A program made the position numbers and the translations under genes. Below, one piece after another: positions 9,457 to 14,288 of a stretch of 32,000 nt of DNA (positions are counted from its first letter, which is position 1; the number at the start of each line of letters is the position of its first letter). This stretch comes from Aliivibrio fischeri ES114 (GTDB lineage: Bacteria > Pseudomonadota > Gammaproteobacteria > Enterobacterales > Vibrionaceae), in NCBI RefSeq assembly GCF_000011805.1, contig NC_006840.2, one strand, 5' to 3'. A model generated the notes under the pieces. That model did not search any database. It had not been told where the DNA came from and worked only from the letters and a program-made list of their open reading frames with translations.

Positions 9457-9942
9457 ATGGGTAAAACAAAACGTGAAGTAACGTTACGCTTTTTAGCTGA
9501 GCCGGGCGATGTAAACTTTGGTGGTAAGGTACACGGCGGTGCGGTAATGAAATGGATCGACCTCGCGGCTTATGCATCAGCGGCGGGTTGGAGTGGGAAA
9601 TATTGCATTACCGCATATGCCGGTGGCATTCGTTTTGTTGAGCCTATTTTTGTTGGCAACCTTGTGGAAGTGACAGGTAAAGTCATCTATACCGGAAAAT
9701 CGTCTATGCACATCGCTATTGATGTGCAAGCAAGTGACCCTAAAGAGCAGAATAATCGCTTAACGACGCACTGTATCGTTATCATGGTGGCGGTTGATGG
9801 AAATGGTAAACCGACATCAGTTCCTGAGTGGGTACCAGAGACAGAAGAAGACATAAAATTAAGGGATTCGGCTATCAAACTGATGAATATGCGTAAAGAG
9901 ATAGGCGAAGAGATGGAAGCACATGTTCAATACTTAAAATAG
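9457..9942 (+). CDS. Acyl-CoA thioesterase (hotdog fold, YciA/Acot-like)
   Basis: Pattern LRFLAEPGDVNFGGKVHGGAVMKWIDLAAYASA...AYAGGIRFVEPIFVGNLVEV matches the hotdog acyl-CoA thioesterase core. SD AAAGGA lies 7 nt upstream, and the gene starts 32 nt after sbcC. Confidence 0.8.
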   Translation: MGKTKREVTLRFLAEPGDVNFGGKVHGGAVMKWIDLAAYASAAGWSGKYCITAYAGGIRFVEPIFVGNLVEVTGKVIYTGKSSMHIAIDVQASDPKEQNNRLTTHCIVIMVAVDGNGKPTSVPEWVPETEEDIKLRDSAIKLMNMRKEIGEEMEAHVQYLK

Positions 9943-9967
9943 AGTAAAATTTCCTATTGTTTTTTCT

Positions 9968-10019
9968 ATGCGCAATATAATTTTAAAATGTATGTTTTAG
10001 CCTGAATTATATTGCGCAT
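9968..10019. repeat. Perfect 15-bp inverted repeat with a 22-nt spacer
   Basis: ATGCGCAATATAATT (9968-9982) and AATTATATTGCGCAT (10005-10019) are exact reverse complements. No U-run follows on either strand. Confidence 0.9.
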
Positions 10020-10110
10020 GCCTTCTAAATGACGCTGATATAGACACAAAATCTACTTTGGTGTGTATTAAGATAATACAACACGCACAATAAGGTAGAG
10101 GAATAAACTA

Positions 10111-10542
10111 ATGGCATCATTACCAGACGAAAATCAAAAACGCTTTGTAGCCATCTTAAATAAAAAGATGGATTTAGGGCGTACACTCAATGTACTTGGC
10201 CATATTAGTGTCGGCTTATCTGATTTACTTGAGCAGAGTGATGCAGAGTTTGTTGATTACTATGATAAAGATAAACACCACCATCCTAATATCTCTCATT
10301 ACCCATTTATTGTTTTAAAAGCGCCAAACTCGAATAAAATCAGAACTATTCGTGAGCAAGCGTTAGAGCTTGGTATTCAATTTACGGATTTTACTCATAC
10401 GATGATTGAAGGTGGCTCTATCGTTCAACAACAGACAACCAGTGAAACGAAGGATGAAGATTTCGAATACCTTGGAATATGTTTGTTTGGGGATACTGAA
10501 ACTATTAAAGGGATCACCAAAAAATTCAGTTTATATAAATAA
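10111..10542 (+). CDS. DUF2000-like protein (PTH2-like fold family), function unknown
   Basis: From memory, the layout KRFVAILNKKMDLGRTLNVLGHISVGLS ... FTDFT ... YLGICLFGDTETIKGITKKFSLYK resembles DUF2000 family members. SD GAGGAA upstream. Not verified by search. Confidence 0.55.
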   Translation: MASLPDENQKRFVAILNKKMDLGRTLNVLGHISVGLSDLLEQSDAEFVDYYDKDKHHHPNISHYPFIVLKAPNSNKIRTIREQALELGIQFTDFTHTMIEGGSIVQQQTTSETKDEDFEYLGICLFGDTETIKGITKKFSLYK

Positions 10543-10761
10543 CTATTATGTTATTTGTTCAGTTTCTATCTAGCGTTTAAAAAGTAAGAAATGGATAAAT
10601 AATTTAGTAGATGTTAAAGGATAGGGGAAACAAGTTTATTTAAGGGTTGCATTGCCAAGTTCATTATATAGAATGGATCGGACTACTAGTTTGGTAGTTC
10701 GGTCAGTAAAGGATTTACGACCTATTATTATAAATGGAATGTGACTAATTAGGATGTACAC

Positions 10762-10926
10762 ATGATTTTCCAACTAACATCAGGCCCATTGTTAGAGCCT
10801 ACAGAAGGTTCACCCCATCATACTGGTTTCAAATCATCAGTTGTTCTTTCTCTGCGTTTCTTCTCGTCTCAGTTTCTCGCGTTTCACTTCTTCTCGTATT
10901 TTCGATTTCTCCGTTTTTATTCGTAA
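10762..10926 (+). CDS. Candidate leader peptide / small ORF (54 aa) with a Phe/Tyr-saturated C-terminus
   Basis: Hand translation: MIFQLTSGPLLEPTEGSPHHTGFKSSVVLSLRFFSSQFLAFHFFSYFRFLRFYS*. AGGA lies 7 nt upstream of the ATG. There are 9 Phe and 2 Tyr in the last 22 codons. It lies 111 nt upstream of the first aromatic-amino-acid permease gene and is absent from the ORF track because of its size. Confidence 0.4.
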   Translation: MIFQLTSGPLLEPTEGSPHHTGFKSSVVLSLRFFSSQFLAFHFFSYFRFLRFYS

Positions 10927-11037
10927 TTAATCAGCTCTAATTTCAACCGCGTTATCTTTGTGGGTAATTTCTTGCGCGTTGAATTTGACAAAAAATAAAA
11001 CTAAAGCTCAAACTCGAATAAAAGTAAGGGAAACATT

Positions 11038-12192
11038 GTGAATTTAAAATTAATCGGAAGCTCACTTATTATTTCAGGTACTGCGCTAGGCGCTGGTATG
11101 CTGGCAATCCCAATGGTATTGGCTCAATTTGGCCTACTTTGGGGTACTGCTCTAATGTTGTTTATCTGTCTTGGAACAACATATGCCGCTTTATTGCTGC
11201 TAGAAGCGAGTATTAATGTTGGTGGTGGTTTAGGTATGAACACCATCGCTCGTAAAAGTTTAGGTAAAAGTGGACAAATTATTACTAATGGTCTGCTTTA
11301 TGCGCTTTTAATCTGCTTATTAATGGCTTACATCTTAGGTGCTGGTGATCTATTAAATAAGCTGTTGCGTGGTATTGGTGTTGAGTTGTCACTCATTCAA
11401 AGCCAGATTGCATTTACATTGGTTGCCGGCATTATTGTTGCTTCGGGAACTGCAGTTATCGATAAATTAAACCGTGTTTTATTTGGCATTATGCTGCTGA
11501 TGCTTGTTTTAACGCTTGTATTTTTAGTTCCTGACATATCGTTTGAGAATATGACACAAGTGACGAATTCAAGTACGACCGATTTAGTTAAAACCAGTGC
11601 AATTATTTTTACCAGTTTTGGTTTTATGGTTGTTATCCCATCATTAGTGTCTTACAACCATGACGCAACACCAAAGCAACTGAGAAATATGGTTATTCTT
11701 GGTTCATTAATCCCATTAGTTTGTTACCTAGTATGGCTTTATGCTGTGGTTGGTAATTTAACGGCTGAACAACTGATTCATTTTACAAATGTCTCTGAGT
11801 TAATCTCTGTATTTAGTGCAGAACATGCATTTATTAGTGTTGTGTTATCTGGTTTTACAGGTCTTGCTTTATTAACCTCATTCTTAGGTGTAGCAATGGC
11901 GCTTTTCACTCAAAACCAAGATATGTTTAAACAGAACAAAGTAGTAACTTATGTTATTAGTTTTATTCTGCCACTGACTGGCGCTATTTATGCGGCTGAT
12001 CAATTCTTATCTGTTTTAAGCTACGCAGGGATCATCTTAGTTTTCTTAGCGGTCTTTGTACCTCTTGCAATGGTGGTAAAACTAAGAAAATCAGAGAATG
12101 CCGAGAAAACATACATTGCGGAGGGTGGGGTAGCTATGCTGACTTTCTCTTTTGCTTTTGGTGGTTTTCTTCTGATTTCACAAGTGATCTAA
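11038..12192 (+). CDS. Aromatic amino acid permease, HAAAP family (TyrP/Mtr/TnaB-like), copy 1
   Basis: N-terminal SGTALGAGMLAIPMVLAQFG matches the TyrP/Mtr/TnaB motif (GTTIGAGMLAMP). About 11 predicted TM segments, about 385 aa. GTG start with AAGGGA 6 nt upstream. Substrate (Tyr, Trp or Phe) cannot be determined. Confidence 0.8.
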   Translation: MNLKLIGSSLIISGTALGAGMLAIPMVLAQFGLLWGTALMLFICLGTTYAALLLLEASINVGGGLGMNTIARKSLGKSGQIITNGLLYALLICLLMAYILGAGDLLNKLLRGIGVELSLIQSQIAFTLVAGIIVASGTAVIDKLNRVLFGIMLLMLVLTLVFLVPDISFENMTQVTNSSTTDLVKTSAIIFTSFGFMVVIPSLVSYNHDATPKQLRNMVILGSLIPLVCYLVWLYAVVGNLTAEQLIHFTNVSELISVFSAEHAFISVVLSGFTGLALLTSFLGVAMALFTQNQDMFKQNKVVTYVISFILPLTGAIYAADQFLSVLSYAGIILVFLAVFVPLAMVVKLRKSENAEKTYIAEGGVAMLTFSFAFGGFLLISQVI

Positions 12193-12303
12193 TGTTATAA
12201 GCTCTTATTTACGGTGTTGTCACATACTATGAATAAGAGCACATCATATCGACAATCTAATTACAGTGTTGATATAAATTTGTTTCAAAAAGAATGATAT
12301 ACA

Positions 12304-13470
12304 ATGAATTTTAAATTATTTGGTAGTGCGTTAATTTTATCTGGTACAGCATTAGGCGCAGGGATGCTGGCTATCCCTATGGTATTGGCACAGTTTGGAT
12401 TGTTTTATAGCACTCTACTAATGTTGATTATCTGTGCAGGAACAACATACGCAGCTTTGCTATTAACAGAAGCATGTTCAAAAACAGAATTAGCATTTGG
12501 GATTAATACTGTAGCAAATAAGACCATTGGTAAAGGTGGTCAACTTGTTACTAATGCTCTGTTCTATCTTTTATTATTTTGCATGTTAATTGCTTATATT
12601 TTAGGGGCAGCAGATTTAATTAAACGTATATTTTCTATGATGAATGTAGAAATGAGCATTGAATTTGCTCAGGTTGCATTCACCTTGTTTGCGAGTGCTT
12701 TTGTTGTTTGTGGAACACAAATTATTGATAAGCTAAATCGACTGTTGTTTTTCTTTATGATTTCCATGTTGGTGTTGACTTTAATCATTCTAATTCCAGG
12801 TATGACAGTGGAAAATCTATCGCAAGTAACAAACCATGATAAAGGTATGCTATTTGATACCAGCACGATTTTGTTTACTAGCTTTGCCTCTATGCCAGTA
12901 ATTCCTTCGTTAGTTGCTTATAATAAGGAAGCGACAAAACAACAATTGCGAAATATGGTTATTCTAGGATCGATCATTCCATTGATCTGTTATTTAGTAT
13001 GGCTATATGCGGTTGTTGGTAACTTAACAGCAAATGAAATTACGCATTTTTCTAATATCTCTGATTTGATTCAAACATTCAGTGCGAAGAATGAATATAT
13101 TGAAATTATTCTGTCGATTTTCACATCATTAGCATTATTGACTTCTTTCCTTGGTGTGGCGATGGCTTTATATAATCAAAATAAAGATATGATTTCACAT
13201 AATAAGATTGTGACATATGTGTGCACGTTTATTTTGCCTTTATTAGGTGCTGGTTTAGCGGCTGATCAATTCTTATCTGTACTTGGTTATGCTGGTGTTA
13301 TCTTGGTTTTCTTAGCTATTTTTATTCCATTAGCAATGGTTGTAACGTTAAGAAAAAAAGAGACAGAGGAAGTGCATCAAAACCTTCATATTTATACAGC
13401 TGAAGGTGGTAAATTAGCTCTTGGTTTAACTCTTTTATTTGGTTTATTGCTATTAATTAGCCAAATTTAA
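12304..13470 (+). CDS. Aromatic amino acid permease, HAAAP family (TyrP/Mtr/TnaB-like), copy 2
   Basis: Alignable end to end with the preceding ORF (MNFKLFGSALILSGTALGAGMLAIPMVLAQFG...; NMVILGS-IPL-CYLVWLYAVVGNLTA shared). Confidence 0.8.
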   Translation: MNFKLFGSALILSGTALGAGMLAIPMVLAQFGLFYSTLLMLIICAGTTYAALLLTEACSKTELAFGINTVANKTIGKGGQLVTNALFYLLLFCMLIAYILGAADLIKRIFSMMNVEMSIEFAQVAFTLFASAFVVCGTQIIDKLNRLLFFFMISMLVLTLIILIPGMTVENLSQVTNHDKGMLFDTSTILFTSFASMPVIPSLVAYNKEATKQQLRNMVILGSIIPLICYLVWLYAVVGNLTANEITHFSNISDLIQTFSAKNEYIEIILSIFTSLALLTSFLGVAMALYNQNKDMISHNKIVTYVCTFILPLLGAGLAADQFLSVLGYAGVILVFLAIFIPLAMVVTLRKKETEEVHQNLHIYTAEGGKLALGLTLLFGLLLLISQI

Positions 13471-13483
13471 TAGATATTATGAT

Positions 13484-13537
13484 CTGACCTGATACAGTTA
13501 ACGTAATAGTTAAAGAATATTTACTGTAGAAGGTCAG
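13484..13537 (+). promoter_or_regulatory. Intergenic hairpin whose 3' arm covers the SD of the first lipoprotein gene
   Basis: CTGACCTgaTACAGT (13484-13498) pairs with ACTGTAgaAGGTCAG (13523-13537): 7 + 6 bp with a 2x2 internal loop and a 24-nt apical loop. GAAGG (13529-13533) is the SD for the ATG at 13542. Confidence 0.35.
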
Positions 13538-13541
13538 CATT

Positions 13542-13898
13542 ATGAAATACTTAATTATTGCATTTTCTGCTTTATTTTTAGCGGCATGCGCAACTCCTCC
13601 TCCTACTTCAATGCTCGATAGTGACTGGTCAACCTTTGGTTACGAAAGAGCCATGAAAGGACAAATAGCTCAATCAGAATCACGACTAGATAAATTACTA
13701 GACGATCAAAATTTAAAATCGAGCAATTATCAAGCCTACTTAGCTGGTTACAAAAAAGGTCAGAATGAGTATTGTTCGCAAAATGCGTATATACTTGGTG
13801 TAACTGGTGGTCCATATAACGGAATATGCGATCTTATCGATTGGACTTTCCGAGAAGACTACAACAGTGGTCGATTTTCAACTGCGAATGGGATGTGA
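13542..13898 (+). CDS. Small lipoprotein, DUF2799-like, paralog 1
   Basis: Signal peptide with lipobox FLAAC. Conserved D-W-x2-G and Y-x-x-G-Y-x-x-G-x-x-x-YC-x-Q-x-x-Y-x-LG-x-x-G-x-x-Y-x-G-x-CD shared with the ORFs at 13929 and 21797. Confidence 0.7.
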   Translation: MKYLIIAFSALFLAACATPPPTSMLDSDWSTFGYERAMKGQIAQSESRLDKLLDDQNLKSSNYQAYLAGYKKGQNEYCSQNAYILGVTGGPYNGICDLIDWTFREDYNSGRFSTANGM

Positions 13899-13928: not shown

Positions 13929-14288
13929 ATGAAAGCATTTATAACTGTAGTACTTAGTTCTTTGTTGTTTGCTTGTTCTACAACTGCACCAATCACTTCA
14001 ACGCAAGATAGTGATTGGAACCAGTATGGTTTTGACAGAGGCTCTAAAGGGTGGAACCTAGAGACACAGGAGCAATTAAATAATGCTTCAGATGGTCAAC
14101 AAATAAAAGTATCTAATTATCAGGCTTATACAGCAGGCTATGCTAATGGACAAATGAAGTATTGTCAGCAAGATGCTTATGAATTAGGTATGAAGGGTGA
14201 GGTTTATACTGGTGTATGCGACAGCATAAATAAAGATTTTAAGTATGATTACTTACGTGGCTATCATTCACACACTAAAGATATGTAA
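13929..14288 (+). CDS. Small lipoprotein, DUF2799-like, paralog 2
   Basis: Lipobox LLFAC, SD AAGGAG upstream, and the same conserved core (SNYQAYTAGYANGQMKYCQQDAYELGMKGEVYTGVCD). Confidence 0.7.
   Translation: MKAFITVVLSSLLFACSTTAPITSTQDSDWNQYGFDRGSKGWNLETQEQLNNASDGQQIKVSNYQAYTAGYANGQMKYCQQDAYELGMKGEVYTGVCDSINKDFKYDYLRGYHSHTKDM

Follow-up and report, generated by a model that had tools for sequence, protein, structure and literature searches.

What is encoded in the 495 nucleotides (nt) that precede two tandem aromatic amino acid permease genes of Aliivibrio fischeri ES114, and does it take part in their control? The DNA analyzed here, hereafter the window, is a 32,000-nt stretch of contig NC_006840.2 in which this gap runs from the stop codon of a DUF2000 gene at 10542 to the GTG start codon of the first permease at 11038. 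A sequence-only reading had noticed in the gap an open reading frame (ORF) with a tail saturated in Phe and Tyr codons and had proposed it as a leader-peptide sensor of Phe/Tyr-tRNA charging. The features on which that proposal was built were all reproduced: the coordinates, frame, length, and translation of the ORF (54 codons from an ATG, followed by TAA), the size of the gap, the AGGA Shine-Dalgarno (SD) sequence at 10751-10754 with the ATG 7 nt further 3′, and the presence of 9 Phe and 2 Tyr codons among the last 22 and of no Trp codon anywhere. Both downstream genes belong to Trp_Tyr_perm (PF03222), in agreement with their earlier description as tandem aromatic permeases; their best NCBIfam models are TIGR00837 and TyrP, the latter the best match, and each scores below its curated (equivalog) cut-off. 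From the comparisons described below we favor, with roughly even confidence, a reading in which a dedicated cis-acting leader found throughout the Vibrionaceae would control a TyrP-like aromatic permease operon by starvation-sensing translational attenuation.

Evidence bearing on translation of the ORF came from a comparison set of 80 orthologous permease loci, fetched from Aliivibrio, Vibrio, Photobacterium, and a few other genera. The window permease itself is 98% identical to that of Aliivibrio fischeri. In nearly all 80 loci an aromatic-tailed ORF of 45-82 codons precedes the permease, with 57-200 nt between the leader stop codon and the permease start. Homologous leaders are present at 51 Vibrio/Aliivibrio loci and begin with M-x-F-K/Q-I/L-T-x-(G)-P-x-x-E-P-T-E-G-S-P-H. 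Among 32 distinct Vibrio sequences the encoded residue never differs at codons 3-6, 8-9, and 11-18, and all four third bases are used at Pro codons 8 and 12 and at Thr codon 13; in Aliivibrio the differences within codons 1-19 are synonymous only. By the Nei-Gojobori count, the proportions of nonsynonymous (pN) and synonymous (pS) differences over codons 2-18 were 0.062 and 0.645 in Vibrio (pN/pS 0.096) and 0 and 0.34 in Aliivibrio (pN/pS 0), to be compared with pN/pS values of 0.06-0.09 for permease codons 11-70 in the same genomes. The N-terminal peptide is thus under protein-level purifying selection equal to that on the permease. Because substitutions of this synonymous-only kind imply that the amino acids matter, we take the leader to be shown, by genome comparison, to be translated.

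The frame might have proved not to be conserved in relatives, which the sequence-only reading had named as grounds for abandoning its proposal; the start codon, the frame, and the Phe/Tyr-rich tail are kept across the three genera. An untranslated chance ORF in a U-rich intergenic region, an explanation that could draw on the shortness of the ORF, its low complexity, and its absence from annotations, is effectively refuted by the synonymous-only substitutions. It is scarcely credible also in view of the conservation of start, frame, and SD spacing and of a composition test in which the 11 Phe plus Tyr residues in the last 22 codons were compared with those of the 141 ATG-initiated ORFs of at least 25 amino acids in the window (the runner-up had 6) and with 100 first-order Markov random windows (none reached 11). 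Of these lines of evidence the comparative one is far stronger than the test of composition.

The distribution of the element was followed within and beyond the fetched loci. Photobacterium leaders have other N-termini, lacking the conserved block, and the same type of tail (GFFAFSRFSFFSY and FYGYFAAFRFSH, each running to the stop codon, are examples). Four apparent exceptions were inspected: one metagenome-assembled genome (MAG) has a leader with the variant start MKTIATGPILEPTEGSPH..., the leader of one draft genome is frameshifted, P. galatheae has a Phe/Leu-rich ORF further from the permease, and the element is absent from the two true Psychromonas genomes (L042 and L044, both type strains). 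At the locus from Vibrio sp. JCM 19236 (L061, BBSB01000001.1, approximately 2768-2977) a frameshift splits the EPTEGSPH block from the tail SFSRFYFSY; the break probably arose when this draft genome was assembled, the leader being intact in the close relative L055. A contig labelled as a Psychromonas sp. MAG (L010, JBALXF010000006.1) carries an Aliivibrio-type leader before a permease 83% identical to that of the window, and may be mis-binned or mis-classified. When metagenomes were scanned with a back-translated EPTEGSPH motif, 48 matches were obtained, 23 of which were leader ORFs; every one of the 23 had an aromatic tail, and a permease orthologue (62-90% identity) lay downstream in all 22 with enough sequence. 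The idea that EPTEGSPH is a module reused before other genes or with other tails was dropped, the scan having shown only aromatic tails and this permease. These data show that the leader is linked exclusively to this permease.

Searches of the 54-residue product against Pfam and NCBIfam profiles (E ≤ 0.01) returned no match. Protein searches yielded one and four unnamed or hypothetical homologues among 5.8 billion proteins and one among 1.84 billion representative proteins; one match, a 1089-residue protein with 35% identity, was assumed to be a low-complexity similarity. No description of the element was found in the literature on tyrP or Vibrio leaders, the motif, CsrA targets, or small proteins detected by ribosome profiling in Vibrio.

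The second conserved part of the leader is its tail, which was evaluated for composition, codon use, and constraint. Tails cannot be aligned across clades, as exemplified by SFSRFYFSY, AFSRFNSAYRSYRYSF, FFFKARYSYCF, and FRFLRFYS, all ending at the stop codon. For 48 loci picked solely by the N-terminal motif, the mean number of Phe plus Tyr codons in the last 20 was 7.25 in frame and 3.35 and 3.98 in the other two frames, and the in-frame count was the highest of the three at 47 loci. This frame specificity means that the aromatic codons are not a mere by-product of U-richness (the region 10840-10926 is 53% U, 25% C, and 14% G). Per 20 tail codons, 4.8 Phe and 2.5 Tyr were observed, as against 3.0 and 1.0 expected from composition. 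Like the leaders of classical attenuators, this ORF carries clustered codons for the amino acids proposed to regulate the downstream gene. Codon choice in the tails also departs from that in the permease: UAU makes up 92% of Tyr codons (40% in the permease), UUU 79% of Phe codons (57%), CGA 51% of Arg codons (15%), and UCN 81% of Ser codons (55%). In tails of Aliivibrio, Vibrio, and Photobacterium alike, CGA is repeatedly followed by UUU (Arg-Phe), the window CGA being at 10903-10905; either slow decoding or RNA pairing (CGAUUU/AAAUUG) may be what selection favors here. Photobacterium tails (for example L011 at approximately 1880-1930 and L014 at approximately 2850-2894) contain a mini-hairpin, GGC-UUUUUU-GCC or CGGC-UAUUUU-GCCG, with Phe/Tyr codons as the loop. 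The leader ORF of the window also repeats a 25-nt unit weakly (1.9 copies, 10847-10895), and TTCTTCTCGT recurs in it as a 30-nt repeat that keeps the frame. In the best-sampled clade the tail had a pS of 0.14, compared with 0.53-0.67 in the N-terminus and the permease, and a pN/pS of about 1; with synonymous sites nearly frozen, RNA-level constraint acts on the tail as well.

The partner of the tail RNA is predicted to be the permease ribosome-binding site (RBS). In both the minimum free energy and the centroid folds of the window, the last six leader codons pair with a strand that contains the permease SD, at pair probabilities of 0.5-0.85, and RNAalifold gives this helix as the consensus for nine Aliivibrio sequences, with 97% of cells paired and two pairs showing compensatory changes. 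The helix encloses an intergenic hairpin whose stem is conserved, whose loop varies in length (inserts of 0-15 nt), and which, having no U-run after it, does not qualify as a canonical terminator. A clade of 13 Vibrio species has a 10-bp helix, AUUCAUUUUC/GAAAAUGAAU, across the permease AUG; in three of these species an AU-to-GC double change keeps the helix, the change on the permease side being the synonymous AAU-to-AAC. Other clades use other registers (GUUUCAAGCGC/GUGCUUGAAA and GUUCGUAUUC/GAAUACGAC). The mean duplex energy of tail and RBS was -11.3 kcal/mol; other windows of the leader averaged -5.9, and RBS sequences shuffled to matched composition averaged -7.0. When whole leader transcripts were scanned, the best complement to the RBS fell in the last 60 nt of the ORF at 44 of the 51 Vibrio/Aliivibrio loci, approximately 22% being expected. 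Deletion of the leader tail in silico left the window RBS region essentially unpaired in the centroid, and on family average an in-silico ribosome footprint 5 codons before the stop raised RBS accessibility from 0.33 to 0.48, whereas a control footprint at codons 5-15 left it at 0.33. Complementarity of the tail to the RBS is thus shown as a predicted property of the family, and these comparisons trace some of the tail's U/C richness to an RNA-level constraint, that of pairing with the permease RBS.

These findings bear on the suggestion that the ORF encodes a trans-acting small protein, such as a permease partner or regulator, whose upstream position would serve only co-expression. Selection on its N-terminal 18 residues as strong as that on the permease, together with the restriction of the motif to the neighborhood of this permease, is what such a protein would lead one to expect. 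The middle of the product is variable in sequence and length, however, its tail is of low complexity and unalignable between clades, Photobacterium has the tail without the N-terminus, no Pfam or NCBIfam family contains it, the protein searches gave only the few unnamed or hypothetical homologues, and the nucleotide constraint and RBS complementarity of the tail indicate a role in cis. We regard a trans-acting product as improbable.

Several conventional modes of regulation were considered for the permease. An Rfam cmscan of 9900-13600 (E ≤ 10) gave spurious sub-threshold matches only, with no leader, riboswitch, or T-box, and the combined lack of Rfam, Pfam, and NCBIfam matches bears out the suspicion of the sequence-only reading that the leader is no homologue of pheL/pheM or TnaC. 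After the ORF the window has one 5-bp inner stem with a weak U-rich tail at 10947-10963. Terminator-like sites were detected at 8 of 47 Vibrio/Aliivibrio loci and 4 of 23 others, their stems all weak and of 5-6 bp, and no terminator/antiterminator pair is conserved across the loci. The leader-peptide idea of the sequence-only reading is supported in so far as the leader is real, conserved, translated, and dedicated to the permease. Lacking a conserved switch of that kind, and with terminators that are weak and sporadic, classical transcription attenuation is unlikely as the conserved mechanism and was rejected. A Photobacterium subgroup (L011, L013, L038, and L041) has a terminator-like hairpin with a U-run 8-26 nt past the leader stop, and the output mechanism may differ between genera. 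Control by TyrR is not indicated: TGTAAA-N6-TTTACA with up to 3 mismatches had 27 matches where 43 were expected, and the sole nearby match (10755-10772) overlaps the leader ATG at a place where Vibrio sequences diverge. A perfect TTGACA at 10985-10990 was rejected as part of an internal promoter, having no -10 element and a spacing that is broken by insertions in L002 and L008.

Upstream of the leader ORF, the blocks TTGCA(A/T) ... TAAGAT/TAGAAT are conserved at a single place in 50 aligned Vibrio/Aliivibrio upstream regions. They form a putative promoter that a consensus scan missed because its -35 element matches at merely 3-4 of 6 positions, and transcription would start near 10680. The 5′ untranslated region (UTR) that results is predicted to fold into three hairpins. 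P1 is found in nearly all 49 distinct 5′ UTRs, with stems that vary by clade (GGACUACUA/UGGUAGUUC, GACCUCUA/UAGAGGU, UAUCUC/GAGAUA, and CCACCUC/GAGGUGG). In most Vibrio/Aliivibrio sequences P2 displays an unpaired GGA in its loop, approximately 50 nt upstream of the leader start codon, and the same design occurs in Photobacterium; loop sequences such as ACAGGAUGU match the CsrA consensus obtained by SELEX (systematic evolution of ligands by exponential enrichment). A second GGA is invariant at approximately -26 to -31 in Vibrio/Aliivibrio and lies at approximately -28 in most of 14 Photobacterium 5′ UTRs. P3 holds the leader SD in its loop and extends its 3′ arm into the leader AUG, and its stem switches between clades from UGUG/CACA to UGUC/GACA. 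The GGA of the SD (10752-10754 in the window) is at exactly -10 in all Vibrio/Aliivibrio sequences (-11 in one) and at -12 or -13 in Photobacterium, where the SD is GGAG in a hairpin loop. All three GGA motifs are invariant in the 49 distinct Vibrio/Aliivibrio 5′ UTRs, and the layout is shared by most Photobacterium. CsrA targets characteristically contain multiple GGA motifs, including one exposed in a hairpin loop and another within the SD; the leader 5′ UTR has this layout, with at least two GGA motifs placed accordingly. Leader translation is probably gated by CsrA, judging from this arrangement. The literature yielded no relevant report of CsrA action on this leader, and Rfam has no family for the GGA-bearing element. 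The structured 5′ UTR with its three conserved GGA motifs and the protein-level selection on the N-terminus are two points that go beyond the sequence-only reading.

Such a gate could suffice by itself. In this rival explanation, coupling or a CsrA relay would operate without amino acid sensing, so that leader translation opens the helix or masks a Rho utilization (rut) site and the Phe/Tyr codons are a by-product of a U/C-rich strand. It would accommodate the three invariant GGA motifs (one in a loop, one at the SD) in three genera, the several UUUCUC anti-SD-like copies in the tail, the frozen synonymous sites, the preference for U-ending codons and UCN Ser codons, and a leader RNA in which C is about twice G. 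Yet the Phe/Tyr enrichment is frame-specific at 47 of 48 loci and greater than composition predicts, the Tyr codons UAY hold an A that is of no help in pairing with a purine-rich RBS, Photobacterium tails are aromatic despite weak RBS complementarity, and the N-terminal peptide is left unaccounted for. We consider control of this kind, with no sensing of amino acids, quite unlikely.

The mechanism that we favor, starvation-sensing translational attenuation, would proceed as follows. Transcription would begin approximately 80 nt upstream of the leader ORF, and hairpins in the 5′ UTR would display the three GGA motifs, one of them the leader SD, through which CsrA may gate leader translation. 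Ribosomes translating the leader would reach a final stretch of about 20 codons in which Phe and Tyr abound, chiefly as UUU and UAU, which are read slowly, and in which the rare CGA also occurs. The RNA of this tail would double as the pyrimidine-rich strand that pairs with the permease SD and start codon, such that a tail free of ribosomes leaves the permease initiation region sequestered. When Phe- or Tyr-tRNA is scarce, ribosomes would dwell on the tail and occupy the strand, so that translation (and transcription) of the permease could proceed. The leader RNA, which is rich in C and poor in G (C 0.25-0.27 and G 0.14, about a twofold excess, as against C < G in the permease), may also be exposed to Rho when free of ribosomes; dependence on Rho, known from tnaC and speFL, is accordingly a serious alternative or addition to this mechanism. 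Sensing of Phe/Tyr-tRNA charging by the leader is plausible. Whereas the existence, conservation, and translation of the leader are shown, what it senses, in which direction it regulates, whether CsrA and Rho take part, and what the N-terminal peptide does are matters of inference.

A number of observations weigh against this mechanism. The tail is the best RBS complement at just 8 of 24 Photobacterium loci. For the window's own sequence, masking by the footprint lowers RBS accessibility from 0.45 to 0.30-0.35; the RBS fails to open because the SD re-pairs with UUUCUC copies at 10847-10855 and 10891-10899, and 0.48 is reached only when the whole tail is masked. The window folds are no more stable than their shuffles (z = -0.34 and -1.05), and duplex specificity against shuffled RBS sequences is weak in most Aliivibrio sequences (p 0.06-0.34). 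Covariation in the long-range helix is thin, with one or two compensatory pairs within clades, and the structures tested were derived from the same alignments in which covariation was counted; because the loci are phylogenetically related, the Wilcoxon p-values overstate the support. Ser and Arg are enriched in the tails along with Phe and Tyr, for which Phe/Tyr sensing gives no account. A ribosome stalled at the first Phe codons would free the last anti-SD copy, so the direction of regulation is not fixed by the sequence. Published experimental results on the element were not found in the literature, and the mechanism assigns no role to the strongly conserved N-terminal peptide.

The main rival is a TnaC- or SpeFL-type arrest peptide, in which free Tyr or Phe would stall the ribosome and thereby expose the permease RBS or block Rho, giving induction by abundance; the aromatic C-terminus would compact in the exit tunnel and halt termination or elongation with the ligand bound. 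For SpeFL, an N-terminal sensor domain, a C-terminal effector domain acting through five Phe residues, and the use of any stop codon have been described, and tnaC-tnaAB provides a precedent for leader control of a HAAAP permease. In the present family all three stop codons are in use, the leader RNA is C-rich and G-poor, selection on the N-terminus shows that the amino acid sequence matters, and the C-termini of the tails are loosely alike (R-[FY] in position -4 or -7, then [FY]-[SC]-[FY] directly before the stop), with 41 of 60 distinct tails ending in FSY, FYS, FSH, or YSF. Known arrest peptides need fixed residues and spacing, whereas these tails are unalignable between clades and share only composition and a short end motif. 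The N-terminal block lies 26-64 residues from the stop codon according to clade, which would place it outside the tunnel at a variable distance, and it is missing from Photobacterium; neither Trp nor HIRRXXH is present; and in the best-sampled clade the tail is constrained at the nucleotide level (pS 0.14, pN/pS about 1). On balance, ligand-dependent arrest of the TnaC/SpeFL type appears unlikely.

The same comparison with known systems can be made for each component of the leader. TnaC resembles it in preceding an operon with a HAAAP permease (tnaB) and in the possible participation of Rho, and differs in being a 24-residue peptide that senses free Trp through the essential Trp12, Asp16, and Pro24; the Vibrionaceae leader has no similarity to it, its tail is compositional, the window ORF lacks Trp, and the tails of the family never end in Pro-stop. 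SpeFL (speFL-speF-potE, responding to ornithine) likewise has a conserved N-terminal block, a Phe-rich C-terminus, a transporter operon, and freedom of stop codon, but it is a 34-residue peptide held wholly in the tunnel, with HIRRXXH and fixed Phe positions, in contrast to leaders of 45-82 residues with a spacing of 26-64 and no such motif. The Escherichia coli leaders of pheL-pheA and pheM-pheST share with the present family distal Phe codons before a gene of the Phe economy and, as proposed here, a signal consisting of dwell on scarce Phe-tRNA. They differ in length (14-15 codons, the window ORF being 3-5 times as long), in acting through a terminator/antiterminator where the Vibrionaceae leader has none conserved and no match to the Rfam Phe_leader, in controlling biosynthesis and charging where it precedes an uptake gene and mixes Tyr with Phe, and in having no counterpart to its peptide block under protein-level selection. 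With ermC, cat, and cmlA the likeness is in the output: the 3′ part of the leader forms a helix strand that sequesters the downstream RBS, and a held ribosome frees the RBS in those systems, as it is proposed to do here. The pairing of the leader 3′ part with the downstream SD and start that typifies translational attenuation is predicted here as well, with thin covariation. Those ribosomes stall on a tunnel-bound antibiotic and a specific peptide, whereas the trigger proposed here is the supply of aromatic aminoacyl-tRNA, and the Vibrionaceae helix spans 57-200 nt and encloses further hairpins. By analogy, then, the leader may combine pheL-type logic with an ermC/cat-type output applied to an uptake gene.

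Leaders rich in a single codon also stand before other transporter genes, as in mgtL and mgtP (Pro codons; Salmonella mgtA and mgtCBR) and the Lactococcus Leu/phe leader RF01743, Phe-codon versions of which have been reported upstream of putative transporters. These belong to other taxa, use other codons, act through transcription termination, and have no detectable similarity to the Vibrionaceae leader. The Lactococcus Leu/phe leader motif is listed in PMC2864571. The CsrA-repressed leaders of glgC and cstA parallel the layout found here, with several GGA motifs at intervals of approximately 16-25 nt, of which one lies in a hairpin loop and another overlaps the SD; CsrA controls a structural gene in those cases, and the cistron under putative GGA control here would be a regulatory leader ORF.

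The most interesting point is that neither the starvation model nor the arrest-peptide rival accounts for the conservation of the N-terminus. During decoding of the tail the N-terminal peptide is already outside the ribosome, so any reader of it would lie outside the tunnel. It is possible, if doubtful, that the leader encodes a two-module nascent chain under a CsrA-type gate, consisting of an externally read N-terminal peptide and a Phe/Tyr anti-RBS tail. The 18-residue M-x-F-K-I-T-x-P-I-x-EPTEGSPH would then be read outside the tunnel by a protein factor, the membrane or permease, or a ligand, and three inputs, namely carbon/CsrA status, the supply of aromatic aminoacyl-tRNA, and a signal carried by the peptide, might converge on a single 250-nt leader and so adjust the uptake of aromatic amino acids.

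The coordinates of all features are collected in Table 1. The tandem paralogue, permease 2, is probably in the same operon as permease 1. No leader ORF was found in the 111-nt spacer between them (12193-12303), which contains GCTCTTATT (12201-12209) and AATAAGAGC (12232-12240) as the arms of a 9-bp inverted repeat that lacks a U-run. Further downstream, two tandem small ORFs (13542-13898, 118 amino acids, and 13929-14288, 119 amino acids) resemble lipoprotein paralogues, and the first matches DUF2799/PRK11443.

Table 1. Positions in the window of the leader, the permease genes, and the associated sequence and RNA elements.
Feature	Coordinates	Strand	Basis or remarks
Inferred promoter: TTGCAT 10647-10652, 16-nt spacer, TAGAAT 10669-10674	10647..10674	+	Conservation only
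5′ UTR hairpin P1	10680..10700	+	Predicted; in nearly all 49 distinct 5′ UTRs
5′ UTR hairpin P2, conserved GGA 10711-10713 in loop	10701..10722	+	Predicted
Second conserved GGA motif, AUGGAAUGUG	10736..10738	+	Alignment
Hairpin P3, AUGUGAC/CACAU, leader SD AGGA 10751-10754 in loop	10739..10763	+	Predicted
Leader ORF	10762..10926	+	54 codons + TAA; homologous ORFs before orthologous permease
Conserved N-terminal peptide MIFQLTSGPLLEPTEGSPH, codons 1-19	10762..10818	+	Residues invariant, third positions free
Phe/Tyr-rich tail, last 22 codons; RNA rich in pyrimidines, with the anti-SD-like UUUCUC in several copies	10858..10923	+	9 Phe, 2 Tyr
Long-range helix, 5′ strand: last six leader codons UUU CUC CGU UUU UAU UCG (UUUCUCCGUUUUUAUUCG)	10906..10923	+	Predicted; minimum free energy and centroid folds
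Intergenic hairpin UUCAACCGC ... GCG-GUUGAA, enclosed by long-range helix	10942..10983	+	Folds, alignment
Long-range helix, 3′ strand: CGAAUAAAAGUAAGGGAA, contains permease SD AAGGGA (11026-11031)	11015..11032	+	Predicted folds
Permease 1, Trp_Tyr_perm (HAAAP), 384 amino acids, regulated gene	11038..12192	+	PF03222, E = 4e-73
Permease 2, Trp_Tyr_perm tandem paralogue, 388 amino acids	12304..13470	+	PF03222, E = 3e-67

Leader-peptide control in gamma-proteobacteria is textbook knowledge for biosynthetic and tRNA-charging operons. A leader of aromatic codons that governs aromatic uptake, apparently by sequestering an RBS, with no terminator, would be new for this group and would provide a first candidate for Tyr-codon sensing. 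The element is real and widely conserved, and we regard it as a genuine new form of leader-peptide control, with the mechanism proposed above. Conservation of the three GGA motifs hints that the global CsrA regulon may be linked to amino acid uptake, and selection on the N-terminus inside a leader offers a test system for nascent-chain functions beyond the exit tunnel. Essentially all Vibrionaceae, among them pathogens as well as the squid symbiont, have this leader family, yet it is missing from their annotations.

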